Of a DNA stretch of 38,654 nucleotides, positions 1,278-35,683 are shown in pieces. Made by a program: the position numbers and the translations under genes. Position 1 is the stretch's first letter. Each line of letters starts with the position of its first letter. Source of the DNA: an uncultured Mycoplasmatota bacterium. GTDB taxonomy: Bacteria; Bacillota_I; Bacilli_A; RF39; UBA660. The stretch spans positions 1 to 38,654 of the forward strand of contig CANSWQ010000002.1 in the NCBI GenBank assembly GCA_947650775.1, given 5' to 3'. The notes below the pieces were generated by a model that saw only the letters and a list, made by a program, of their open reading frames with translations, did not search any database and had not been told where the DNA came from.

Positions 1278-2102
1278 TTGAAAGATTGCGAAGTAATAGC
1301 AGTTGCAAACCAAAAAGGTGGTGTAGGAAAAACGACAACGGTCTTTAATTTAGGTGTAGCGCTTGCTAAAGAAGGTAAAAGAGTATTGCTAATTGATGGT
1401 GATCCACAAGGAAATCTAACAACGTATATGGGATTTGATAGTCCTGATGATTTAAAAGTTACTCTAAGTACAATCATGCTGAATGAAATTAATAATGATG
1501 ATAGCAATATTAAAGAGTCAGTACTACATCATAAGGAAAATATAGATTTAATTCCTTCAGATTTAGAATTGTCATCATTAGAGTTCTCATTAGTAAATGC
1601 AATGTGTCGTGAAAGTACAATGAAGAAATCATTATGTCATTTAAAAAGAGAATATGATTATATTCTAATTGATTGTCAACCATCGCTTGGAATACTAACA
1701 ATAAATGCCTTAGCTTTTGCTAATAGAGTCATTATACCAACTCAAGGACATTATTTTTCAGCTAAAGGTATGACAGAATTGATTAAAACGATTAAAAGAA
1801 TAAATAGGAAAATTAATTCGGATTTAATTATTGACGGCGTGTTATTTACTATGATAGATAATAGAACTAATTTATCAAAGGAATTAAAATCTGATTTAAT
1901 AACTAATTATGGGAGTAAAATTCACTTTTATAATTCACAAATACCAATGGCAATAAAAACAGCAGAATCAACAGCTTATGCCAAAAGCATATTTGAATAT
2001 GACAAAAATAGCAAAGTAGCAATAGCTTATACTTCATTAGCAAAGGAGATATTAGAAGATGAGAGAAGAAGAACAAAAAAAGAAACTGCCATCGTTAGAT
2101 GA
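1278..2102 (+). CDS. parA: ParA/Soj-family partition ATPase
   Basis: Deviant Walker A IAVANQKGGVGKTTT. TTG start 7 nt after SD agaggaga. Typical ParA length with a downstream ParB partner. Confidence 0.92.
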   Translation: MKDCEVIAVANQKGGVGKTTTVFNLGVALAKEGKRVLLIDGDPQGNLTTYMGFDSPDDLKVTLSTIMLNEINNDDSNIKESVLHHKENIDLIPSDLELSSLEFSLVNAMCRESTMKKSLCHLKREYDYILIDCQPSLGILTINALAFANRVIIPTQGHYFSAKGMTELIKTIKRINRKINSDLIIDGVLFTMIDNRTNLSKELKSDLITNYGSKIHFYNSQIPMAIKTAESTAYAKSIFEYDKNSKVAIAYTSLAKEILEDERRRTKKETAIVR

Positions 2103-3015
2103 ATTATTTTCTACTGAGGAAGAAAGGCAAGAAAATAACATAGAGAAAGTTGTAGACATTCCTATTTCAAAAATACAAGACTTTAAAAATCATCCATTTA
2201 AAGTTGAAGAAAATGAAGAACTGATTAGTATGTCTGAAAGCATAGCAAAGTATGGCGTATTAGAACCAGCAGTAGTTAGGCCTTTAAATGATGGAACTTA
2301 TGAAATGATATCAGGACATAGAAGAAAAAAAGCAAGTACTATGGTAGGTAAAGAAACTATTAGATGTATTGTAAAAGAATTAAGCGATGATGAAGCTACA
2401 ATAATAATGGTTGATAGTAATATTCAACGTGAGAAAGTGTTACCTTCAGAAAAAGCCTTTGCATATAAAATGAGATTAGAAGCAGAAAAACACCAAGGTA
2501 GAAAGATTGAAATATCTTTGTGCCAAGTTGGCACGAAGTTAAGAAGTGATGCTATTCTAGCTCAACAATTAAATGAAAGTGCAAGAAATATTCATAGATA
2601 CATTAGATTAACAAACCTTATACCTGAAATCTTAGAAATGGTGGATAATGGAATAATTGCACTAACACCAGCAGTGGATATCTCTTATTTAGAAATAGAT
2701 GAGCAAGCAGTATTACTAGATGTAATGGGATATAATGGTTGTACACCCAGTGTATCACAAGCTAAGCAAATAAAATATTTAAGTGAAAAAGGAGAATTTG
2801 AAGAATCAAAAGTAAAAAAAATATTAAACCAAGCTAAACCTAATCAAATTGAAAGGATACACCTAGATAAAAAGAAAATTAGCCAAGTACTGCCAAAGTT
2901 AAAGGATGACAAAGTAGAAGATTATATTTACCAAGCTATTATTTTTTACAATAAACATTTAGAACATCAAAAATTAATAGATAAAAAAGTTAAATTATCC
3001 GAACAAGTTAGATAA
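2059..3015 (+). CDS. parB: ParB/Spo0J-like nuclease-domain partition protein
   Basis: ParB-box motifs (LEPAVVRP, ISGHRRKKAS). SD aaggaga 9 nt upstream. Overlaps the parA 3' end. Confidence 0.88.
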   Translation: MREEEQKKKLPSLDELFSTEEERQENNIEKVVDIPISKIQDFKNHPFKVEENEELISMSESIAKYGVLEPAVVRPLNDGTYEMISGHRRKKASTMVGKETIRCIVKELSDDEATIIMVDSNIQREKVLPSEKAFAYKMRLEAEKHQGRKIEISLCQVGTKLRSDAILAQQLNESARNIHRYIRLTNLIPEILEMVDNGIIALTPAVDISYLEIDEQAVLLDVMGYNGCTPSVSQAKQIKYLSEKGEFEESKVKKILNQAKPNQIERIHLDKKKISQVLPKLKDDKVEDYIYQAIIFYNKHLEHQKLIDKKVKLSEQVR

Positions 3016-8532: not shown

Positions 8533-9477
8533 ATGCCTTATTTTTCAACAGAAGCAATTAATAGTGTTAGGAATTTAGATTTATTAACATATTTAAGAAA
8601 TTATGAACCTGAAGAATTGGTAAAGATTTGTAGAGGCAATTATTGTACAAAAACACATGATAGTTTAAAAATAAGTAATGGAATGTGGTATTGGTTTTCT
8701 AGAGGAATTGGAGGAAAAAGTGCGTTGGATTATCTTGTAAAAGTAAGAGACTACTCCTTTACTGAAGCAGTAGAAAAAATATTAAAAGAATGCGATATAG
8801 ATAATATTCAAAAAGTTGAGTATATAGACAAGAATGAAGATAGAGAATTTGAATTGCCAGAAAGAGCTTCAAATAATTATACAGCAATAAAATATTTAAC
8901 TAATAGAGGGATAGATAAAGAAATCATAAATGAGTGTATCAATAAGGGATTAATATATCAAGATATAGACAACAATGTAGTATTTGTGGGATATGATCAA
9001 AATAATATAGCTAAATATGCTAGTATAAGAACTACAACTAATAGGAGATTTATGTATGAAGCATATAAAAGCAATAAAGCTTTTTCATTTCAGTTAGCCA
9101 ATATAAAAGAATCAGAAAGTGTCCATATTTTTGAAAGCGCTATTGATCTTTTATCATATGCAACATTAGTGAAGATGAGTAATAAAAACTTAAATACAAA
9201 TTTAATTTCTTTATCAGGAGTGTATCAACCACCAGAACAAATTGAAGATACTTTAATACCAATAGCACTAAATTATTATCTAAATATACATCCAAAAACA
9301 AAAAGAATTTTTTTACATTTAGATAATGATTATACAGGAAAAAAGGCAAGTAATGCTTTAAGCTGTGTGATTCCAAAACGTTTTGAAGTCATTGATAGTC
9401 CACCACCAAATGGTAAAGATTACAATGATTTTTTGTGTTATATAATAAATAAAAATTTAGATAAAGGAGAAAGATAA
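8533..9477 (+). CDS. Toprim-domain protein (DUF3991/primase-like)
   Basis: Degenerate primase Zn-finger-like N-terminus (CRGNYCTKTHDSLKI..WYWFSRGIGGKSALDYL). Toprim Glu (FESAIDLLSY) and DxD (HLDNDYTGKKA). Confidence 0.85.
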   Translation: MPYFSTEAINSVRNLDLLTYLRNYEPEELVKICRGNYCTKTHDSLKISNGMWYWFSRGIGGKSALDYLVKVRDYSFTEAVEKILKECDIDNIQKVEYIDKNEDREFELPERASNNYTAIKYLTNRGIDKEIINECINKGLIYQDIDNNVVFVGYDQNNIAKYASIRTTTNRRFMYEAYKSNKAFSFQLANIKESESVHIFESAIDLLSYATLVKMSNKNLNTNLISLSGVYQPPEQIEDTLIPIALNYYLNIHPKTKRIFLHLDNDYTGKKASNALSCVIPKRFEVIDSPPPNGKDYNDFLCYIINKNLDKGER

Positions 9478-9478
9478 A

Positions 9479-9958
9479 ATGTTAAATAATATAAAAATAG
9501 GTGAAGTAATTAGGTATTTTAGAATGAAAAATAATATGTCTCAAAGAGAGCTTGCTAATATTGTTGGAATTGATAGAACAGAAATAAGTAAGATAGAAAA
9601 CAATATTAGAAAGACAATTAATGATAGCGTATTAAAAAGAATTTGTAATGTTTTAAATATAAATTATATCAAACTTGTGGAAAAGTCAGATATAAATAAT
9701 AAAGAAAATAATTCTAAAAAATATGAAATAATAATTACAGAAACATTTAAAACAAAGTATATAGTTTCAGCTAAAGATGAACAATCAGCAGTTGGTTTTA
9801 TTAATGATTTTTTTAAAGCAGCAGATGTTTTGGAATGTGAAATAAGAAAAGAAAGTGAATCTTTTTCTGATGTTGATGTAAAAGAAATAAAGGAAAAACA
9901 TTGCAGTTTGGAAGAAAAAAATTATATTTTATTTGATGAAGCAGATATTTTACTATAA
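9479..9958 (+). CDS. XRE-family HTH regulator with an extra C-terminal domain
   Basis: MSQRELANIVGIDRTEISKIENN HTH_3 signature. Confidence 0.8.
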   Translation: MLNNIKIGEVIRYFRMKNNMSQRELANIVGIDRTEISKIENNIRKTINDSVLKRICNVLNINYIKLVEKSDINNKENNSKKYEIIITETFKTKYIVSAKDEQSAVGFINDFFKAADVLECEIRKESESFSDVDVKEIKEKHCSLEEKNYILFDEADILL

Positions 9959-10216
9959 AAATTATAATAATGTGCTGTATTAGCAAGCACTGAATAATTA
10001 CTCCCGTAATTATTCTCTTGTTACCCAGTGTAACTTAAAATATATATTAAAATAATTAAACGTATGATATAATTGTCATTGGGAAGTAATATCAAGATTG
10101 TACCACTAGAGTGTAGGAATTTATCAGAACAATCTTTTTATTGTAAATGAGTTTTAACTCATAGTTAAGTGTTAGCACTAATGTGCTAATTTTTTTTATT
10201 AGAAAGGATTGATATC
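9959..10216 (+). promoter_or_regulatory. Candidate oriT and/or structured leader upstream of mobC
   Basis: ORF-free and packed with inverted repeats: a 10-bp perfect stem gaataattac/gtaattattc (9992..10015), gttac/gtaac (10020..10034), aagattgt/acaatctt (10094..10136) and atgagtt/aactcat (10147..10162). Extended -10 tgatataat at 10065..10073. Lies immediately upstream of the relaxosome genes. Confidence 0.5.
10172..10198 (+). terminator. Intrinsic terminator-like hairpin upstream of mobC
   Basis: ttagcac-taat-gtgctaa followed by nine T. Confidence 0.65.
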
Positions 10217-10342
10217 ATGGAAGAAATATTTTTCTTAATAGGAGGATTAAGTGTAATATGTATTATGAATTGTTTTCAAATAAATAAAATAAATGCATTT
10301 ATTAAATCAAATAAGAAAGAAACAAAAGATAATGAGAGCTAG
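10217..10342 (+). CDS. Unannotated 41-aa hydrophobic/basic peptide ORF overlapping the mobC start (leader peptide?)
   Basis: SD aaagga 8 nt upstream of the ATG. MEEIFFLIGGLSVICIMNCFQINKINAFIKSNKKETKDNES. Its TAG (10340..10342) lies 8 nt after the mobC ATG at 10332. Confidence 0.35.
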   Translation: MEEIFFLIGGLSVICIMNCFQINKINAFIKSNKKETKDNES

Positions 10343-10661
10343 AAATATAAAAAAGCAAATATGGATTAATAAGGAAGAAGATTATATCTTAAAAGATAAA
10401 GCTGCAAGGGTAGGATTGTGTGAAGCAGAGTTAATACGGAATTTGATTTTAGGTTTTGAGCCTAAAGAGAAACCAGATAATAGATTTTATGAAGTTATGA
10501 GAGAGTTAAGAGCTATAGGAAACAATATAAATCAAATAGCAAGAAGAGCAAATACATTAAATAATATAGATTGTGAATTGTATAAAACTGAAGCTATTAA
10601 ATGGAATAACTTTATGTTAGATATAAAAAAAGAGTTTCTTCTTCCAAAAGAAATTAAATGA
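10332..10661 (+). CDS. mobC: MobC-family relaxosome accessory protein
   Basis: Signature ELRAIGNNINQIARRAN. Start moved to M14 of the track ORF (MRARNIKKQIWINKEE..), which fits typical MobC length. Neither ATG has a good SD. Confidence 0.85.
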   Translation: MRARNIKKQIWINKEEDYILKDKAARVGLCEAELIRNLILGFEPKEKPDNRFYEVMRELRAIGNNINQIARRANTLNNIDCELYKTEAIKWNNFMLDIKKEFLLPKEIK

Positions 10662-10663
10662 TA

Positions 10664-10692
10664 TATACATTATTAGAAGTTAGTGATATAAT
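10664..10692 (+). promoter_or_regulatory. Predicted sigma-A promoter for the Zn-ribbon/HEPN-like pair
   Basis: -35 tataca (10664..10669), 17-nt spacer, extended -10 tgatataat (10684..10692). Followed by SD gaggtg and the ATG at 10719. Confidence 0.45.
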
Positions 10693-10718
10693 ATACAATA
10701 AATTTGAGGTGAAATAAT

Positions 10719-10967
10719 ATGAGTTGGGAAGTTACAAATAAAAAAAGCATAAAATGTTTATGTGGTAAAGGAAGTATTGTTCAGGAGACAATAGGTGATG
10801 ATTGGAATAGACATAAAGATAAAGAACCTATTATAGAATGTGAAGAATGTTCCCAAAAATATAAAATTGATTCAGAATGTATTTGTCCAAAGCCTTACCA
10901 TGATTATACAAATTATTATTGTGTTGAAAAAGAAAATCCAAGTAAAAAAATAACGTTGGATTTATAA
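10719..10967 (+). CDS. Small Cys-rich zinc-ribbon-like protein (82 aa)
   Basis: CxC...CxxC pairs (CLCGKG / CEECSQ) plus further Cys/His residues. SD gaggtg upstream. Confidence 0.6.
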   Translation: MSWEVTNKKSIKCLCGKGSIVQETIGDDWNRHKDKEPIIECEECSQKYKIDSECICPKPYHDYTNYYCVEKENPSKKITLDL

Positions 10968-10980
10968 TAGGAGATAATAA

Positions 10981-11505
10981 ATGAATGAGGTATGGACATG
11001 CAAAAGTCCCTATAATTTTGCAGATGAAAATTTTGCTACGATATTTTCGTTTTTTGTTATTGAGTGTCCGGTTGAAGATATAAGTGTAAGAGGAGCAACT
11101 TCTGAAAGAAAAACAAATTTACAAGGATTTACTAGCCAAAGTATTTCTACAAATTTGAAAACTGGATATTGGAATCCAATAGATGAGAATAAGAATAATA
11201 GTAATATAGAAGATATAATACGTAATAATGGTATTATTTCACATAATGAAATAAAATATGAAATAGTAGCTTTTAAATATTATAAAAAAGATATGATGAA
11301 ACAATTTTTATATTCCATAAGGTGTGCTTTCGCTCATGGTGCGTTTTGTATTCATGAACATGATAATTGTAAATTTTATTATTTTGAAAATTTTGATATA
11401 AATGGAAAAGGTTTAATAGCAAGGATGGTTTTAAAAGAAGAATCCTTAATAAAGATAGTTGATAAATTAAAAATTAAAAAGGAAAACTACAAACAGCAAA
11501 ATTAG
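10981..11505 (+). CDS. HEPN-like protein (putative RNase), 174 aa
   Basis: Rx4-6H motifs: R114-CAFA-H119 within YSIRCAFAHGAF (nt 11320..11337) and R81-NNGIIS-H88. SD aggaga 13 bp after the previous stop. Confidence 0.45.
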   Translation: MNEVWTCKSPYNFADENFATIFSFFVIECPVEDISVRGATSERKTNLQGFTSQSISTNLKTGYWNPIDENKNNSNIEDIIRNNGIISHNEIKYEIVAFKYYKKDMMKQFLYSIRCAFAHGAFCIHEHDNCKFYYFENFDINGKGLIARMVLKEESLIKIVDKLKIKKENYKQQN

Positions 11506-11511
11506 AAAGGG

Positions 11512-12819
11512 TTGATATTAATTGCAACTACAGCAATATGGAAGATAACTAAAAGACTAGACCATGTAATAGACTATACGACAGATAAAGATAAAACTTT
11601 AAATAAAAAATATGGTAAGCAAGACTTTAAAGAATTTCATAACTTGTCAGCACATAAGAATGAAGAATATGTAAATGAGAAACATTGCTTTATATCTTCA
11701 CTAAATTGTTCCGTAGAAAGTGCATATGAAGAAATGAAGATAACTAAGAAAACTTTTAACAAAACTGAAGGTATACTTGGTTTCCATGCTTTTCAATCAT
11801 TTGCAGAGAATGAAGTAACACCAGAAACAGCTCATGAAATAGGAGTTAAACTAGCTGAAGAAATATGGGGTGATGATTTTGAAGTAATAATTAGTACTCA
11901 TCAAAATACTAAACATATTCATAATCACTTTGTAATAAATTCTGTAAGTTTTAAAAATGGTAAAAGATACTATGATAAAAGAGACACGTATGCAAGAATA
12001 AGACAAGTGTCAGATTCTTTGTGTGAAGAATATAATCTTAGTGTTTTAAAAGAGAAGAAATGCCAAAGAAGTAAAATAAATTATGATAATTATAATAAGA
12101 GCTATATAACAAAAGATAATTATCATTCTATTGCATTAGAAGATATTAATTTAGCTATTGATAAATCAAAATCATTAAATGATTTTGTAAATAATATGAT
12201 TGCATTGGAATATGAAGTTTTCTTTAGATATGGAAAGATTAGTATTCGTAAAAAAGGATATAAAAAGAATATTAGAATAGAGCGAGCTTTTGGAAGCGAA
12301 TATACTATAGACAGAATAAGAGAAAGAACTTTTGAGAATAGAACTAAGTATAGACAATATGAAAAACAAAGTTTTAAAAGAATAAAAGGTTTCTATAATT
12401 TATATGCTTATTATTATTTCCTTTTAAAAACTTTTAAACAAAAGCCAATAAAATATATTCCATCATATATAAGGGAAGATGTTAAAAAGATGGATGAAAT
12501 ATCTGAACAGACAAGATTGCTAGTTAGTAATAACATAGAAACTGACAAGCAATTTTTTTTATTTGCCAAAAATAAAAATGATGAGTTAAATATTTTAATA
12601 GGGGAGCGTGAAAAATTATGGTACAAATATAAAAAAAATGATTCCAATAAAGATGAAATTAAAGTTAAAATTAATTCTATTACGAAAGATATAAATAATT
12701 TAAGGAGAGTGATAAAGTTATGTGATGGAATAAAAGAACGATGTTATAAAATTGAAGAAGTAGTAAAAGAAGTAGAAAAAAATGAAAGAAAGGGTGAAAA
12801 GAAATATGAACTCAAGTGA
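11512..12819 (+). CDS. Relaxase (MobA/VirD2-type relaxase/mobilisation nuclease domain)
   Basis: Histidine triad STHQNTKHIHNHFVINSV and the N-terminal region ATTAIWKITKRLDHVIDYTTDKDKT. Start codon uncertain: the TTG at 11512 abuts the SD, and an ATT at 11521 is better spaced. Confidence 0.9.
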   Translation: MILIATTAIWKITKRLDHVIDYTTDKDKTLNKKYGKQDFKEFHNLSAHKNEEYVNEKHCFISSLNCSVESAYEEMKITKKTFNKTEGILGFHAFQSFAENEVTPETAHEIGVKLAEEIWGDDFEVIISTHQNTKHIHNHFVINSVSFKNGKRYYDKRDTYARIRQVSDSLCEEYNLSVLKEKKCQRSKINYDNYNKSYITKDNYHSIALEDINLAIDKSKSLNDFVNNMIALEYEVFFRYGKISIRKKGYKKNIRIERAFGSEYTIDRIRERTFENRTKYRQYEKQSFKRIKGFYNLYAYYYFLLKTFKQKPIKYIPSYIREDVKKMDEISEQTRLLVSNNIETDKQFFLFAKNKNDELNILIGEREKLWYKYKKNDSNKDEIKVKINSITKDINNLRRVIKLCDGIKERCYKIEEVVKEVEKNERKGEKKYELK

Positions 12820-13564
12820 TGCAGCAGAGACTCTTGTAAAGATAACATTAGAAGGAACAGAATTTGCTTTAAAAATAACAGGTACAGCAGCGTCTTATTT
12901 AGTTCCGTTAATAATTGCGAAATTACAAGAGCAAAATGAATCTGTAGGTAAGACAAAACTAATAAAATTATTAAAAAGTGAAAAGCCATTAAAAATATTC
13001 TCTATCAAATTAGATGATGTAAAAGAGTTTAGAAGTCAAGCTAAAAGATATGGAATTAATTATGCTGAGCTTAAACATAAAAAGAATGATAAAGATGATA
13101 TTGTTGATTTAATAGTTAAAGCTGAAGATGCTGCAAGAGTAAATCGCATGGTTGAAAGATTTAATCTATCTAATTTCAATGAAAATGAAATTAGAAGTAA
13201 AATTCAAGATAGTGATGACAAAGAATCTAACAATGAAGTAATATCTCCAATTAAAGATCCAGATTCATTGGTAGCTGACATTTTCTCAAAGCAAGAAAAG
13301 GAAGCTGAAGCCCCCCTGTTAGACAAGGAGATAGGGAAAAAGAGTCCGTTAGAGAGTTCTTATACAAGCAAAAACAATCAGAGTTCAATTACTTCTAACG
13401 ATAGACCTTCAGTTATAGAAAATCTCCAAAAAATAAAAGAAGAACAAGTTAATAAAGATATACCTGAAGAAGAAACTATAAAATCAAAGACTAAAGAGAT
13501 AAAGCATCAACAACCTAAAATTAAAAAGAAAAAAGAAAGGGGAAACAAAGATGGATATAGATAG
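12782..13564 (+). CDS. PcfB/DUF3801-like conjugation protein
   Basis: N-terminal TLEGTEFALKITGTAASYL.. region and a position between relaxase and T4CP typical of PcfB-like proteins. The alternative start at 12806 is possible. Confidence 0.6.
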   Translation: MKERVKRNMNSSDAAETLVKITLEGTEFALKITGTAASYLVPLIIAKLQEQNESVGKTKLIKLLKSEKPLKIFSIKLDDVKEFRSQAKRYGINYAELKHKKNDKDDIVDLIVKAEDAARVNRMVERFNLSNFNENEIRSKIQDSDDKESNNEVISPIKDPDSLVADIFSKQEKEAEAPLLDKEIGKKSPLESSYTSKNNQSSITSNDRPSVIENLQKIKEEQVNKDIPEEETIKSKTKEIKHQQPKIKKKKERGNKDGYR

Positions 13565-31077: not shown

Positions 31078-32262
31078 ATGGCTTTAATTAAAGGCAAAAG
31101 TAAAAAAGCTTTTTTTGAAAGAAAATCATGGTGTCATAGATATAAAATAATAAGTCCTGAATGTAAAATTCTATATAGAAAAAAAGGAGGATTTAAAACT
31201 GAAGAAGAAGCAGTAGCTAGTTATAAAATATACGAAGAGCAGTTTAAAGAACAATGTAAAAAGTATATAGTAAAAAAAGAAATGTATGTTAAAGCATTTT
31301 TTGAATATTGGTTTGAAGAAATATATTCCTTAAGGATTCAACCGAATACAAAATCTATAGGCGCATATATTGTCTATGACTTAATAATACCATCAATTAT
31401 CTATGATATAAGATTAGATCTAGCAACAGCTGATTATTTTGATAATATCTTGAATATTGCAGCAAAAAGAACAAAATATAGTGGTGTAGCAGCTAGTAGT
31501 TATATAAGAATGGCAATAAAAGATGCTTTTTCTATGGGATTAATTAATTACGATTATGTTGAAGAAATAAAAAAGTTTCATCGTGAAAAGCCAAGAATTA
31601 CAGTATTAAATTTATCTGAACAATCAAAACTTTTAGAACAAGCAGAGAATACACAATGGTTTTTAGAAATATTATTAGGATTATATTGTGGACTAAGAAA
31701 GGCTGAAATTTTAGGTTTAAAGTTTTCAGATATAGATTTTGAAAATAAAGTATTATTTGTACAAAGACAATTAATTATAGAGAAGACAATTGAAAAAGGG
31801 ACTTCAAAAGTATTGAATACTCAACTAAAGGAAAGCACCCCAAAAACTAAAAATAGTATTAGAAAATTTAAACTTCCAGACTTAGTATTAGAAGAAATAT
31901 TAAAACGAAAAGTGGAAGTAGAAAAAATAAAAAAACTATCACCAAATTATAATGATAATGATTATATTAGTTGTCAAAAAAATGGAAAACCACATGGTTT
32001 AACATCATTAAATGACGCAATAGCAAGAATATGTAAAATAGTGTCTTTGCCACATATTACAGTGCATTCTTTAAGGCATATGTGTGCAACAATGCTATTA
32101 GAGGAAGGAACTGAATTGGCTAAGATATCAGCTTTTTTAGGGCATTCTAGTGTGCATACAACATTTGAATATTATTGTGAAATTGTTGATGGTAGAAATA
32201 AAATATTATCTTATATTAACGATATATATAAAAATGGTTCAATAGAAGGTGCGCTATGTTAA
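31078..32262 (+). CDS. int: Tyrosine recombinase/integrase 1 (with an AP2-like arm-binding N-terminus)
   Basis: GLRKAEILGL (R), HSLRHMCAT (HxxR), LGHSSVHTTFEYY (H..Y). Confidence 0.9.
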   Translation: MALIKGKSKKAFFERKSWCHRYKIISPECKILYRKKGGFKTEEEAVASYKIYEEQFKEQCKKYIVKKEMYVKAFFEYWFEEIYSLRIQPNTKSIGAYIVYDLIIPSIIYDIRLDLATADYFDNILNIAAKRTKYSGVAASSYIRMAIKDAFSMGLINYDYVEEIKKFHREKPRITVLNLSEQSKLLEQAENTQWFLEILLGLYCGLRKAEILGLKFSDIDFENKVLFVQRQLIIEKTIEKGTSKVLNTQLKESTPKTKNSIRKFKLPDLVLEEILKRKVEVEKIKKLSPNYNDNDYISCQKNGKPHGLTSLNDAIARICKIVSLPHITVHSLRHMCATMLLEEGTELAKISAFLGHSSVHTTFEYYCEIVDGRNKILSYINDIYKNGSIEGALC

Positions 32263-33545
32263 ACTTAGCAGAATTAACAAAGAAACCAATTAAATATCAT
32301 GTATATAATGTAACAAGATTAAAGGATAAATATGGTTATAAAATAAAGTTTGAATATGCAGACGACACTATTAGAATACACCAATTTGGTGGTTTTAAAA
32401 AAAAGAGTGAGGCAAAAGAAGCAAGAGACAATGCAGTAGCAGATATTAAAAATAACAAATTTGTTTATTATGGAAATATAAAGTTTAAAGATTTTGCTAT
32501 AGCATGGCTTGAACAAATAAGTAAACCTAACATAGCATATAACTCGTATATGTCATATAGGAACGTTATTAAGAACTATGCTATACCATTTTTTAAAGAA
32601 ATGTATTTAACAACAATTAATATAGGACATATAACAAATTTTTATAATAAAGCGACAGATAAATCTTCTGTGCTACGTATAATAAAATATGTACTGGGAA
32701 TAATGTTTCAATATACAAAAGAAAACAATTTAACAAGAGTAAATCCAACTATAGGAGTTAAAATACAAAAGAATGAAGAAGAAAAACAATATGGTGTATT
32801 AAATATAGATACCAGTAAAACATTAACGATAGAGCAAACAAAAATATTAATAGAAGCAAGTAAGAGTACACCAATATATTTGGAAATATTATTCGCATTA
32901 TTAACAGGTTTAAGAAAATCAGAAATTCATGGTTTAAAATATACGGATATTGATTGGAGTAAAAAAAAGATATATATAACAAGGCAGTTAGGAGTAGATC
33001 CAAATAAGAATAAAGAAGAATGCAAGAAGAAAACAATAACAAAGCAAGAAATAAAACTAAAAACAAGATCAAGTAAAAGAGAAATTGATATACCAGATAT
33101 GTTGTATGAAGCATTATTAGAAGAAAGGATAAAATATGAAAAGAATAAGAGAAGAAGAATTAATGATAAAACCAATCTATTTATAGATGAAAATTATATA
33201 TGTTGTTCTACGTATGGGCATTCCAGAAGTAGAGGCTTTGTAAGACCATATTTTATTAAATTACTAGAAGATAATAATTTGCCTAAAATAAGATTTCATG
33301 ACTTAAGACACACTTACACAACTTTAATTTTAATGAATAATGGTAGCTTAAAAGCAGTATCCACATTACTTGGACATTCTTCCACAATGATTACTTTAAA
33401 TAACTATTTTAATGTTCATGACATAGTTATAGATTGTACGAATTTTTTAAATTCTATCATTGCGAAAACATATCATAAAAAAGATACAAAAATAGAAATA
33501 ATTGACTTAAACCTAAATTTGCTAATAAAAAGAGAAGTCCCGTAA
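32256..33545 (+). CDS. int: Tyrosine recombinase/integrase 2 (with an AP2-like arm-binding N-terminus)
   Basis: GLRKSEIHGL (R), HDLRHTYTT (HxxR), LGHSSTMITLNNYF (H..Y). Its start overlaps the int1 stop (ATGTTAA). Confidence 0.9.
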   Translation: MLNLAELTKKPIKYHVYNVTRLKDKYGYKIKFEYADDTIRIHQFGGFKKKSEAKEARDNAVADIKNNKFVYYGNIKFKDFAIAWLEQISKPNIAYNSYMSYRNVIKNYAIPFFKEMYLTTINIGHITNFYNKATDKSSVLRIIKYVLGIMFQYTKENNLTRVNPTIGVKIQKNEEEKQYGVLNIDTSKTLTIEQTKILIEASKSTPIYLEILFALLTGLRKSEIHGLKYTDIDWSKKKIYITRQLGVDPNKNKEECKKKTITKQEIKLKTRSSKREIDIPDMLYEALLEERIKYEKNKRRRINDKTNLFIDENYICCSTYGHSRSRGFVRPYFIKLLEDNNLPKIRFHDLRHTYTTLILMNNGSLKAVSTLLGHSSTMITLNNYFNVHDIVIDCTNFLNSIIAKTYHKKDTKIEIIDLNLNLLIKREVP

Positions 33546-33629
33546 ATACTAATAAAAAAGCAATATACAATGGTTTATTTCTGTGTTAAAATAGATTAGA
33601 AAAAGTTATTTAGTGTTATCTAATATTTT

Positions 33630-33700
33630 TGTGGCCAATTGGTGTACAATGTCGTACACAGGCTAAAATATAAAAAAATAAAAATCTAATGTACGAATTT
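33630..33700. repeat. Candidate integrase arm-type sites at the right end of the ICE
   Basis: The 29-mer at 33630..33658 matches 431..459 at 23/29 positions. tgtacgaattt at 33690..33700 recurs at 33435..33445 and, inverted, at 449..459. Confidence 0.5.
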
Positions 33701-33736
33701 TCATTGGTTGAGAATAATCATATTAAGGAGGGCATT

Positions 33737-35683
33737 ATGTTTAAATTAGTATCAAAATTTGAGCCATCTGGAGACCAACCAGAGGCTATAAAAGAGTTGG
33801 TTGAGGGAATCAAAAATGGCAAGAAAGAACAGGTTTTACTGGGTGCAACAGGTACTGGTAAGACATTTACAATTGCAAATGTAATTAAGGAAGTTAACAA
33901 GCCAACTTTAGTTTTAGCACACAACAAAACTTTGGCTGGTCAGTTGTACACAGAACTTAAAGAATTCTTTCCAGAGAATCATGTTGAGTATTTTGTTTCG
34001 TATTATGATTATTACCAACCAGAAGCATATGTTCCTTCAAGTGATACATATATTGAGAAAGATTCTTCAATTAATGATGAGATAGATGAATTAAGACATG
34101 GAGCAACCAGTGCATTAATTAACTATAATGATGTTATAGTAGTATCAAGTGTATCCTGTATATATGGTATAGGGGAAAGAGAAGAATATGAAAAAGCCAG
34201 GCTTATATTAACAGTTGGAGATATTATTAAAAGAAATGCTATTATAAATAGATTAGTAGATATGACTTATGAGCGAAGTGATATTGATTTCCATCGTGGA
34301 ACCTTTCGTGCTAGAGGAGATATTATTGATGTCATACCAGTTAATGAACACGCTTATGGAATAAGAATTGAATTATTTGGGGATGAAGTTGAAAGAATAT
34401 CAACATTTGACCCAGTAACAGGTGTTATCATATCTGATAAAAAAACTATTACGATATCTCCAGCTTCACATTTCGTAACAAGCCCTGAAAAATTAGAGGA
34501 AGCATTAAAAAGAATTGAAGCTGAATTAGATGAAAGGTTAAAAGAATTAAAAGAAAATAACAAATTATTAGAAGAGCAAAGACTTCGAGAAAGAACCAAT
34601 TATGACATTGAAATGTTAAAAGAAACTGGCTTTTGTAGTGGAGTAGAAAACTATTCTAGACATTTAGCCCTAAGAGGACCAGGCGAGACCCCAACTTGTT
34701 TAATAGACTTTTTTCCCAAAGATTTTTTATTAGTAGTTGACGAATCTCATGTTACATTACCTCAAGTACGTGGTATGTATAATGGTGATAAAATGCGTAA
34801 AACGGTTTTAGTAGATTATGGTTTTAGATTACCAAGTGCCCTAGATAATAGACCTCTTAATTATGAAGAGTTTGAAAAAAAGATTAATCAAGCAATATAT
34901 GTATCAGCAACTCCAGGAGACTATGAATTAGAACATACAAATAATGAATATGTAGAACAAATAATAAGACCAACTGGACTATTAGACCCAACTATTGAAA
35001 TAAAACCAAGTATGGGACAAATAGACGATATAATAAATGAAATAAACATCAGGAAAGAAAAAAATGAACGAGTATTAATTACAACTTTAACTATTAGAAT
35101 GAGTGAAGAGCTAACAAATTATTTAAAAGAAATGGGTATCAAAGTTGCATATTTACACAGTGAAATAAAAACGTTAGAAAGATTAAAAATAATTCACGAC
35201 TTACGTTTAGGAATGTATGATTGTGTAGTTGGAATAAATTTACTTCGTGAAGGAATAGACATACCAGAAGTTAGTTTGATATGTATATTAGACGCTGATA
35301 AACAAGGATTCTTACGAAGTGAACGTTCACTTATTCAAACAATTGGTAGATGTGCCAGAAATGAAAATGGTCATGTAATTATGTATGCTGATAATGTAAG
35401 TGAAGCAATGGATAAAGCAATAAAAGAGACAGCGAGACGTCGTGAAATCCAAATGAAATACAATGAAGAAAATGGAATTACACCAAGAACAATTATTAAA
35501 GATATCAAAGAAGTAGTATCAAATGAAGTAGAAAATAAATCTAAAAAGCCAAAGATGAGCAAAAAAGAAAAAGAAAGTATATTAATGACTTTAGAAGAAG
35601 AGATGAAGACAGCAGCTAAAAACTTAGACTTTGAAAGAGCAATGGAATTAAGAGATATTTTATTTGAAATGAAAAAATCATAA
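33737..35683 (+). CDS. uvrB: Excinuclease ABC subunit B (UvrB), full length, 648 aa, with a chimeric 5' end
   Basis: Walker [21 protein letters not shown], helicase motifs ([15 protein letters not shown]) and the C-terminal UVR domain ([17 protein letters not shown]). Start at MFKLVSK after SD aaggaggg, not the track's upstream ATG at 33689. Confidence 0.97.
34001..34011. repeat. attR core candidate (tattatgatta)
   Basis: Identical to 321..331 and lies inside uvrB codons ~89-92. Confidence 0.55.

Follow-up and report, generated by a model that had tools for sequence, protein, structure and literature searches.

The mob operon analyzed here has a genuine insertion of 851 bp between mobC and the relaxase gene, and the junction that the insertion occupies is a cargo hotspot of this ICE family. 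The insert encodes an 82-aa zinc-ribbon protein and a 174-aa protein featuring R114-x4-H119, an essentially invariant HEPN-type signature of its family; the two genes do not represent a conserved toxin–antitoxin pair. With a modest preference, the segment is interpreted as accessory cargo in a recombination-prone mobC–relaxase slot, comprising a divergent HEPN-like effector of conflict or defence and an independent zinc-ribbon gene. The element hosting the cassette appears to be an ICE of a low-GC Bacillota bacterium, and the whole stretch of DNA analyzed (38,654 nucleotides) is referred to as the window. The features of the region, given in window coordinates, are as follows:

10293..10661, + strand: mobC, encoding a NikA-like/MobC relaxosome accessory protein, left flank of the slot (Pfam PF21983, 3e-14; PF05713, 1e-8); homologous to the related locus L073 up to position 10653
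10654..11504, + strand: insert of 851 bp in the mobC–relaxase slot (blastn against the related loci L073 and L076; gene maps of L073-78)
10664..10692, + strand: promoter-like site TATACA-17 nt-TATAAT with a TG-extended -10 (10 of 12 positions and the TG matched)
10719..10967, + strand: gene for the 82-aa zinc-ribbon protein, with Cys knuckles C13xC15 (10755-10763) and C41xxC44 (10839-10850)
10981..11505, + strand: gene for the 174-aa HEPN-like protein, a putative distant relative of the pEK499_p136 type (family of 501 representatives; PF18736 matches in relatives)
11320..11337, + strand: codons of R114-C-A-F-A-H119, the conserved Rx4H motif (family alignment, position in the AF2 model)
11503..11524, + strand: junction of the 174-aa gene and the relaxase gene, as read from the sequence (TAG stop at 11503-05, AAA GGG, TTG start at 11512, all in one frame)
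11512..12819, + strand: MOBP/Q-type relaxase, right flank of the slot (PF03432, 4e-38; 3409 homologues at E<=1e-30)

The mobC–relaxase junction as a cargo slot

The open reading frames around mobC and the relaxase gene, together with their spacing, were confirmed from the sequence as the initial annotation had given them. Its proposal that the cassette is an insert separating the two genes also held when checked, an empty site being present in the closest relatives. By blastn, the conserved flanks are 851 bp apart in the window but 25 nt apart in L073, the nearest syntenic relative, with the alignment covering window positions 9981-10653 and 11505-12000. The relaxases most similar to that of the window (identities of 74% and 81%) are encoded directly after mobC, and both cassette genes are missing from L073-78, the loci whose relaxases are 74–81% identical to that of the window. 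The GC content of the insert (25.1%) shows no anomaly compared with that of the element (26.4%); neither a target-site duplication nor terminal inverted repeats were found flanking the insert, and no Rfam RNA was detected in the region. An 18-nt RBS-like direct repeat at positions 10198 and 11501 was the sole notable repeat around the insert. For mobC, an alternative ATG start at position 10332 was favoured by the gene callers used on the related loci. Furthermore, an ArdC-N-like gene, representing an establishment or anti-defence type, is located near the cassette.

A scan of metagenome contigs with the relaxase recovered a single relative with 35% identity, and the survey of the junction was made instead by searching for homologous proteins and inspecting the contigs encoding them. 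The survey revealed both an empty site with conserved flanks in relatives and other cargo elsewhere, the pattern by which a hotspot is recognized. Five other lineages carry mutually different cargo at this position. One has an LPD11-RadC protein of 403 aa and another a lipoprotein of 186 aa; in a third, the slot is filled by four to six small genes, among them a zinc-ribbon homologue (73% identical), and in a fourth by genes for a sigma-like factor and membrane proteins, with or without IS110. The fifth filling, in L064, consists of a 212-aa and a 92-aa gene together with a HEPN-like gene (25% identical). The cassette genes are replaced by unrelated genes in L079-93. PDB searches with the 92-aa and 212-aa proteins of L064 were uninformative. 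In the relaxase tree, the window and L064 belong to different clades, indicating that a HEPN-like gene entered the slot independently at least twice. A search of the literature for a described mobC–relaxase hotspot returned nothing specific.

In the initial annotation, the insert had been assigned a promoter of its own. The site is present as described, ranks among the four best plus-strand matches within positions 9400-13000, and has a counterpart in L001, where a similar TGTGATATGAT (extended -10) was found at a comparable distance upstream of the zinc-ribbon homologue. However, promoter-like matches in this region of 26% GC are not commoner than in shuffled sequence (24 found versus 28.7 expected), and the zinc-ribbon homologue in L086 lacks the element in its upstream region. 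Terminator prediction gave nothing in the interval from mobC to the relaxase gene. The 174-aa open reading frame follows that of the 82-aa protein after 13 nt and has its own RBS (GGAG, 8 nt 5' of the start), and an SD-like AAAGGG abuts the TTG start of the relaxase gene (11512). In L073 and L076, the relaxase starts 4–6 codons further upstream, at an ATG (MRGVV / MSIKKGV). Both cassette genes are probably transcribed along with the relaxase gene, by read-through from mobC and from a likely internal promoter, and translation of the relaxase is probably coupled to the end of the 174-aa gene.

The 174-aa protein family and its motif

The 174-aa protein was assigned to a family of 501 clusters at 50% identity, mainly originating from gut Bacillota with some members from Treponema, Actinomycetota and Bacteroidota, and its relatives are labelled 'hypothetical protein' in public records. 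Its one plasmid match, a weak one, was to a Treponema megaplasmid. Searches of the protein against Pfam, NCBIfam, PADLOC, PHROGs and PDB sequences gave nothing significant, and PF18736, the pEK499_p136 HEPN family, was not matched even at E<=1 (gathering cut-off 26.6 bits), which places the protein below the cut-off for membership. Among its relatives, 24 of 120 matched PF18736 weakly (E<0.01, best E 3.5e-7), two matched HEPN_MAE_28990 and one matched RiboL-PSP-HEPN. The PF18736 scores amounted to 17.9 bits for the relative P0002, whose alignment spans residues 73-167 and thus extends beyond the motif, and 16.7 bits for the L009 paralogue, as compared to 168 bits for the founder pEK499_p136. 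Outside the motif, similarity between the 174-aa protein and the founder was insignificant (hhalign probability 1.7%; hmmsearch not significant). The relatives of the founder in PLSDB are all at least 74% identical and, therefore, too close for a useful profile.

The initial annotation had named two Rx4-6H candidates, of which R114-CAFA-H119 is the conserved one. Across 117–120 family representatives, the Arg is kept in 99% and the His in 100%, with the consensus IRNAFAHGxF. The candidate formed by R81 and H88 represents a chance match, because these residues, present in the 174-aa protein, are not conserved even among its four closest homologues. HEPN proteins are characterized by a polar residue (N/D/H) directly following the motif Arg (PMC3710099); this residue is Asn in 71% of the family and Cys in about a quarter of the relatives. 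The same replacement of the usual polar Asn by Cys in the 174-aa protein itself may speak against the HEPN reading.

For structural analysis, the AF2 model computed from 120 sequences (pLDDT 86) was used, the one from 5 sequences (pLDDT 69) being too poor. The predicted fold is of the alpha/beta type with a five-strand sheet and not all-alpha. R114 is located in the last turn of the helix 105-118, at its C-terminal end, followed immediately by H119, and a long C-terminal helix (153-171) comes after a beta insert. In HEPN domains, core helix 3 carries the motif at its C-terminal end, leading into the loop before helix 4 (PMC3710099), and the position of the motif in the model agrees with this. 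The order of the helices would fit a HEPN core bearing two beta inserts, which were likened to the hairpin after the motif in Csx1; some 45% of the chain is non-core. Foldseek searches with the model gave neither a HEPN nor any other match (best E 0.19 in PDB and 0.05 in BFVD), and the weak top matches, namely PAS, Cache and IclR-type ligand-binding domains, were all at noise level. Since the confident model matches no solved fold, the predicted HEPN membership of the protein is supported by its motif only. The HEPN claim of the initial annotation accordingly stands in part: the family features an invariant RNxxxH-type motif and its members weakly match PF18736, the very family that had been named, but the window protein passes no HEPN model and has no structural match.

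The neighbourhoods of the family are in agreement with the conflict or defence leaning proposed at the outset. The relatives are single genes keeping defence-island company, namely type I and IIG restriction-modification, PglX, TIR and HNH genes. PglX/type IIG genes account for 8 of 94 immediate neighbours, the others including HsdM, HsdS, HsdR, TIR-TPR-RCC1, SPFH-zinc-ribbon and HNH. Family members usually come after large restriction-modification or TIR genes, and chromosomal relatives lie inside restriction-modification operons, between hsdM/S and hsdR. The family is mostly chromosomal, a relaxase homologue being encoded within 5 kb at only 2 of 61 loci. This context corresponds to that published for pEK499_p136 (PMC3710099) and also fits the interpretation of standalone HEPN genes in BREX loci as 'backup effectors' (PMC12839542). 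The annotated parts of the window ICE revealed no restriction-modification or BREX genes, so that a role as 'backup to R-M' would be without an obvious partner here.

Relationship between the two cassette genes

The 82-aa protein was described beforehand as Cys-rich with a CxC...CxxC arrangement, and this description was corroborated by its relatives. Eleven homologues with 55–99% identity were found, and an alignment of 12 homologues showed no variation at C13 and C15, C41 and C44, as well as at W3, D28-W29-N30, H61 and Y66. The protein had no significant match in Pfam, NCBIfam, PADLOC, PHROGs or PDB, the best being a sub-threshold match to Zn_ribbon_4 (E 0.046). No relatives were found in plasmids or phages, and all contexts observed here are conjugative elements. 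In L001-5, the zinc-ribbon gene is monocistronic and has its own terminator-like hairpin; in L010 and on the P0014 contig, it is unpaired; in L086 and L087, it is found in this slot as well, followed by an unrelated gene of 146 aa (gap of 8 nt in L086), whose product from L086 gave an uninformative PDB search. Members of the 174-aa family are lacking from four of the five contexts of the zinc-ribbon family. The 82-aa protein is, hence, probably an independent small zinc-ribbon protein from the ICE accessory gene pool and not a dedicated partner of the 174-aa protein.

The two genes had initially been regarded as one system, possibly a toxin–antitoxin or abortive-infection module in which the zinc-ribbon protein neutralises or regulates a HEPN RNase toxin. 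The linkage over 13 nt, the possible own promoter and the order of a small gene followed by a larger one would suit such a module, as would L064, where the HEPN-like gene, acquired independently, likewise has a small gene, that for the 92-aa protein, next to it at a distance of 3 nt. However, none of 61 GTDB genome loci of the 174-aa family carries the zinc-ribbon gene within 5 kb, a small Cys-rich neighbour of any kind was found at only 2–3 of 59 loci, and the relatives usually stand behind large R-M or TIR genes instead. PADLOC gave no match, and the zinc-ribbon gene is found alone in three other ICE contexts and ahead of the 146-aa gene in a further one, which makes the module quite unlikely. 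Alternatively, the zinc-ribbon protein might be a conserved regulator or adaptor of whichever gene follows, its placement before the relaxase gene tying an interchangeable effector to transfer. The same slot does hold members of its family with two different, tightly spaced downstream genes (13 nt and 8 nt), and there appears to be coupling between the relaxase start and the gene before it. This interpretation is improbable, considering that a tightly coupled downstream gene is lacking in three of the five contexts, that the HEPN-like gene of L064 has a different upstream neighbour and that the sample consists of two cases only. Finally, the position inside the mob operon would be expected if, in this relaxase family, both proteins served as ordinary accessory factors of the relaxosome or of transfer. 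The initial annotation had recognized that universal presence of the pair in the family would speak for this reading. The pair turned out to be absent from the two closest relaxase lineages and from L073-78 as a whole and to be replaced by unrelated genes in others (L079-93), and the predominantly chromosomal 174-aa family has a relaxase nearby too rarely; an accessory role in transfer is, thus, extremely improbable.

Proposed function and comparison with known systems

The large family to which the 174-aa protein belongs is proposed to be a distant relation of the pEK499_p136 branch of predicted HEPN nucleases, the protein itself being a divergent member that has so far lacked annotation. As deduced from the family alignment and the structural model, the Arg-x4-His at the helix end most likely forms a metal-independent endoribonuclease site, and the most likely role of the protein would be that of an effector in conflict or defence, belonging to the 'backup suicide RNase' type that accompanies R-M and BREX-like loci. 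It is also conceivable that the protein is no nuclease and that the conserved Arg and His of its alpha/beta fold serve in binding of a ligand or partner; it could then be, for example, an anti-restriction or establishment factor helping the ICE in new hosts. Such a role would suit a confident model that is not all-alpha and lacks a HEPN match, with PAS, Cache and IclR-type domains as its weak top matches, and also the LPD11-RadC slot occupant and the nearby ArdC-N-like gene, both being establishment or anti-defence types. Nevertheless, all of these Foldseek matches are at noise level, RNxxAHG at a helix end is a HEPN hallmark, and the HEPN profile matches of relatives reach beyond the motif. 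Moreover, the chromosomal location between hsdM/S and hsdR is a place of defence accessories and not of anti-defence genes, and a non-nuclease function is, consequently, considered unlikely.

The verdict on the cassette is that of ordinary conflict cargo, and current understanding is not overturned by it. The family is large and gut-associated (at least 500 clusters at 50% identity), possesses an invariant HEPN-type Arg-x4-His, is called hypothetical and appears in no defence catalogue, and its predicted alpha/beta fold, matching nothing solved, either questions or extends the structural meaning of the pEK499_p136 label. The hotspot collects genes of the conflict type (HEPN-like, LPD11-RadC, lipoprotein and small Cys-rich), and it represents a place to mine for new defence and anti-defence genes; it also raises the question of whether co-expression with the relaxase matters. 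A more far-reaching proposal, which is considered improbable, is a selected 'transfer-coupled weapon slot' before the relaxase start, where a small upstream protein (the zinc ribbon, or the 92-aa protein in L064) and an interchangeable effector would be produced solely upon firing of the mob operon, with translation of the relaxase physically linked to the effector gene. That two HEPN-like genes of 25% identity arrived independently at exactly the same position would be its first hint. If true, the HEPN-like RNase would act during mating, for instance against recipient defences, competing elements or failed transfers, and would not be generic cargo.

Among known systems, the pEK499_p136 family (PF18736) described by Anantharaman et al. 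in 2013 (PMC3710099) resembles the 174-aa protein in consisting of a single domain of ~170 aa, where RNxxAH precedes first a hydrophobic and then a '..F.E' strand, in being matched by 24 of the 120 relatives, and in its carriage on mobile elements and next to R-M and Pgl/BREX genes. In contrast, the 174-aa protein itself stays below any PF18736 reporting threshold and shows no significant direct similarity to the founder, whose clade in PLSDB is enterobacterial and plasmid-borne (746 plasmids), whereas the 174-aa family mainly belongs to gut Bacillota. PrrC/RloC and the standalone HEPN 'backup effectors' of BREX loci (PMC3710099; PMC12839542) share with the 174-aa relatives the location inside type I R-M operons and beside PglX/type IIG genes. 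Latent RNases of this kind were proposed to fire when the primary defence is blocked, which follows the same genomic logic (PMC12839542). Unlike PrrC/RloC, the 174-aa protein has no ABC-ATPase domain and no R-M partner in the annotated ICE parts, and its RNase activity is a predicted one.

Type II HEPN-MNT and other pairs of a small antitoxin and a HEPN protein are similar to the cassette with respect to the small upstream gene, the HEPN-like downstream gene and the short spacer. However, the cassette encodes no MNT, its upstream gene is no regular companion of the HEPN-like family, and the zinc-ribbon gene also occurs alone. ICE backbones are known to possess variable regions and hotspots, such as HS1-5 of SXT/R391. 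As in these, a fixed backbone junction is empty in some relatives and filled with unrelated cargo in others, but the junction in the window is part of the relaxosome operon and a few codons at most from where the relaxase starts, and cargo entering this slot joins the mob transcript and probably affects translation of the relaxase.

The mob operon and its host element

The conjugative element in the window (GC content approximately 26%) is an integrated ICE, as deduced from its annotated gene content, comprising partition genes, a mob operon, a VirD4-type coupling protein, TrbL, recombinases and uvrB. A sortase, a SpaA-type adhesin, an SSB, a DUF3991-Toprim primase and an HTH regulator were also annotated, and further ORFs correspond by synteny to VirB4-type ATPase genes found in related elements. 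With recombinases and uvrB at one end (31078–35683) and ParA/ParB at the other (1278–3015), it resembles an ICE that integrated next to uvrB and has retained its partition genes.

Features of the window (positions on the forward strand)
1278–3015, ParA and ParB
10293 or 10332 to 10661, mobC, first gene in the mob-operon order
10664–10692, promoter-like site (TATACA, 17 nt, (TG)ATATAAT; 10 of 12 positions plus TG)
10719–10967, 82-aa ORF, second gene
10981–11505, 174-aa ORF, third gene, after a 13-nt gap
11512–12819, relaxase, fourth gene
31078–33545, two tandem tyrosine recombinases, directly upstream of uvrB
33689–35683, chromosomal-type uvrB

These coordinates agree with the description in the initial annotation. 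A scan of 9400–13000 revealed no terminator-like site between mobC and the relaxase, the sole one in this region being a hairpin at 10171–10190, upstream of the operon. Followed by a T-run and adjacent to a second hairpin (10145–10161), it lies in a 330-bp gap (9959–10292) that is approximately 75% conserved in the related contigs L073 and L076 and could be the oriT or a terminator at the operon boundary. Furthermore, a tiny hydrophobic ORF (10217–10342; 36–56 aa) overlapping the mobC start was called in six of six related lineages (L073, L076, L079, L082, L086 and L090), and may encode a leader or membrane peptide conserved in the mob operon.

The promoter previously proposed to drive the two inserted genes holds as a pattern, and is partly supported by contig L001, where a similar TGTGATATGAT precedes the 82-aa homologue at a comparable distance. 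However, promoter-like matches in the region do not exceed the shuffled frequency (24 found versus 28.7 expected), and the homologue in L086 is preceded by just a 28-nt spacer devoid of such an element.

Cargo at the mobC–relaxase junction

Relaxase homologues were gathered and their contigs were examined. In two groups of related ICEs, mobC directly precedes the relaxase, namely in L073–75 (relaxase 74% identical; 9 nt between the genes) and in L076–78 (81% identical). The blastn alignment of the window with L073 covered 9981–10653 and 11505–12000, leaving 851 bp unaligned in the window (10654–11504) versus 25 nt in L073. The insert reported in the initial annotation is thus real. A 63-aa ORF in L076–78 was rejected as a cargo gene, being the relaxase N-terminus severed by an in-frame TAA. 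This split of the closest relaxase relative (63 aa and 361 aa; L076:3761–5086, also L077 and L078) occurs on contigs from several samples and could reflect pseudogenisation, recoding or an assembly variant common to them.

More distant lineages (relaxases 52–56% identical) carry unrelated genes at the same junction.

Junction contents in more distant lineages
L079–81 (L079:2776–3987), a 403-aa LPD11 + RadC/JAB protein
L082–84 (L082:3344–3904), a 186-aa lipoprotein
L086–89 (L086:1025–2946), four to six small genes, including a resolvase-like fragment, a Cys_rich_CPCC protein, another Cys-rich protein, an 82-aa homologue (73% identical) and an unknown 146-aa protein
L090–93 (L090:940–2877), a sigma-70-like protein and membrane proteins, with IS110 in one copy (L092)

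No transposon-like ends or target duplication were found flanking the insert, which has the same GC content as the element; its exchange would therefore most likely have proceeded through recombination in a common gene pool.

The relaxase TTG start (11512) is in frame with the TAG stop of the 174-aa ORF (11503–11505), with only AAA GGG between them, and this sole SD-like sequence directly abuts the start codon (11503–11524). The relaxases of L073 and L076 use an ATG that lies four to six codons farther upstream, and this native N-terminus is missing in the window. Insertion thus appears to have replaced the native initiation region, and relaxase translation would now depend on termination–reinitiation after the HEPN-like ORF; read-through of the TAG at 11503 would yield a fusion protein. 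Elements with this cassette are common: 256 blocks of the assembly collection index the 82-aa protein, and the 174-aa protein was seen on 105 contigs. The arrangement is therefore evidently compatible with spread.

A further occupied junction was found in L064, a rabbit-gut Bacilli MAG, by searching the 61 loci encoding members of the 174-aa family with the ICE proteins of the window. The gene order in L064:1–3300 is mobC (severed by the contig end), a 212-aa gene, a 92-aa gene, a 180-aa family member, relaxase (52% identical to that of the window), DUF3801 and VirD4. The 180-aa protein features the motif IRNALAHG, is 25% identical to the window protein and is encoded 3 nt after the 92-aa gene, whose product is non-Cys. 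The relaxase tree puts the window together with the two empty-slot lineages and L064 in the other clade, implying at least two independent arrivals of a HEPN-like gene. In both cases, this gene immediately precedes the relaxase, with a small unrelated gene abutting upstream. L064 originated from the family search and not from relaxase sampling, so no enrichment statistic applies. In L018, a family member resides 2 kb from an adjacent mobC–relaxase pair, on the opposite strand. Cargo hotspots are a familiar phenomenon in ICEs; the position of this one inside the mob operon and its repeated HEPN-like occupancy make it worth following up.

The zinc-ribbon and HEPN-like proteins

Invariant in the 82-aa protein and its 11 homologues (55–99% identity) are an N-terminal MSWEV, C13-x-C15, C41-x-x-C44, D28-W29-N30, H61 and Y66, the cysteine arrangement being that of a predicted zinc-ribbon. 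Its sole family match was Zn_ribbon_4, below threshold (E 0.046), and no match was obtained in PDB, PLSDB or phage genomes. Every recovered context is that of a conjugative element. The gene stands alone with its own terminator-like hairpin in L001–5, adjoining a cargo-variable region and preceding an AbrB/MazE-fold gene; it follows a VirB4-like gene and an HNH gene in L010, and an MmeI-type enzyme on the contig of homologue P0014; it lies in the mobC–relaxase slot 8 nt before the 146-aa gene in L086 and L087, and ahead of the 174-aa gene in the window, L006 and L007. The 82-aa gene therefore recurs among the accessory genes of these ICEs and is tied to no particular partner. The interval just upstream of homologue P0008 (L001–L005:2300–5950) differs between samples, holding DUF3221 and a Hexapep acetyltransferase, a nitroreductase-like gene, or RrnaAD (erm-like) with MerR/TipAS and a hydrolase, and is a second cargo hotspot, beside the zinc-ribbon gene.

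For the 174-aa protein, a word-indexed search returned just four relatives, and an exhaustive profile search 501 representatives at E ≤ 1e-3 (241 at E ≤ 1e-10); relatives that have names in public records are called 'hypothetical protein'. In approximately 120 full-length representatives, conservation reaches 99% for R114 and 100% for H119, within the consensus IRNAFAHGxF, where Asn follows Arg in 71% (Cys in the window protein); P30, S35, E94, Y133, E136, E153 and L156 are also well conserved. Of the two Rx4-6H candidates originally put forward, R114-CAFA-H119 is therefore borne out, and R81...H88 is unconserved even in the four closest homologues.

The pEK499_p136 HEPN family (PF18736), named in the initial annotation, was weakly matched by 24 of 120 relatives when these were scanned singly (best E 3.5e-7); the window protein itself gave no match to any model in Pfam, NCBIfam, PADLOC or PHROGs. 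HEPN_MAE_28990 was matched by two and RiboL-PSP-HEPN by one of the 120. Residues 73–167 of P0002, the closest non-identical homologue, align to PF18736 with 17.9 bits, below the 26.6-bit cut-off; the founding pEK499 protein (L085:16727–17224) scores 168 bits, and its alignment to the 174-aa family profile was confined to the motif surroundings and not significant. The family is best described as a probable outlying relative of PF18736 and not a member by Pfam's own criterion. On plasmid pEK499 (L085:8309–18013), the founding 'HEPN family nuclease' is located among two VapBC pairs and a 3.8-kb hypothetical gene, with an AAA ATPase and UvrD-helicase pair (candidate Gabija-like, by composition) and a DUF3800 gene nearby; together they form a small defence or addiction island.

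The AlphaFold2 model, built from a 120-sequence alignment, is confident (pLDDT 86.1, pTM 0.84). It comprises helices 16–27, 41–49 and 52–58, strand 63–68, helix 76–82, strand 95–100, helix 105–118 (R114 in its last turn, H119 just after), three strands within 121–152 and helix 153–171. HEPN domains carry their motif at the end of helix 3, commonly have inserts between helices 2 and 3 and, in Csx1, a beta-hairpin right after the motif (Anantharaman et al. 2013, PMC3710099); given these features, the order of helices in the model would fit a HEPN core bearing two beta inserts.

Genomic company and interpretation

Members of the 174-aa family are encoded at 61 loci from GTDB species representatives, mostly of gut Clostridia and Bacilli and in some cases of Treponema, Coriobacteriia or Bacteroidota. 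A gene of the zinc-ribbon family lies within 5 kb of none of them, and just two or three have a small Cys-rich neighbour of any kind. The two genes had been regarded as one module; their pairing is not a system. A true toxin–antitoxin or Abi pair is quite unlikely, as the two genes do not co-occur, and a modular adaptor-plus-effector unit appears improbable, being based on two cases only. That the 174-aa protein is a non-nuclease or anti-defence protein is unlikely, although it would accord with the Foldseek search, in which the model matched neither a HEPN structure nor anything else in PDB (best E 0.19) or in BFVD (best E 0.05). Relaxosome accessory factors, as a reading of both proteins, are contradicted by the empty sites in relatives and highly improbable.

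We favour, at slightly better than even chances, accessory conflict cargo in the mobC–relaxase hotspot. Gene 2 would encode a predicted RNase effector, HEPN-like and of the type that accompanies restriction-modification and BREX loci, and gene 1 an independent ICE accessory zinc-ribbon protein.

The immediate neighbours of the 174-aa family are heterogeneous and rich in conflict genes. PglX-like or type IIG enzymes account for 8 of 94 neighbours, and type I HsdM, HsdS and HsdR are also found, the HEPN-like gene following hsdS or hsdM in L034 and L041 and preceding hsdR in L016 and L026. Others are TIR-TPR-RCC1, SPFH with a zinc-ribbon, and small phage-type HNH genes. IMG/VR viral contigs carry ten family loci, and L009:17–1213 encodes tandem paralogues (165/170 aa and 190 aa, 111 nt apart; approximately 28% identical to the window protein). 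The 174-aa gene adds an unannotated member to a kind of gene predicted in 2013. Its family's neighbourhood agrees with the published context of pEK499_p136, namely restriction-modification, Pgl, ART and Macro genes (PMC3710099), and with the recent reading of standalone HEPN genes in BREX-type loci as backup effectors (PMC12839542).
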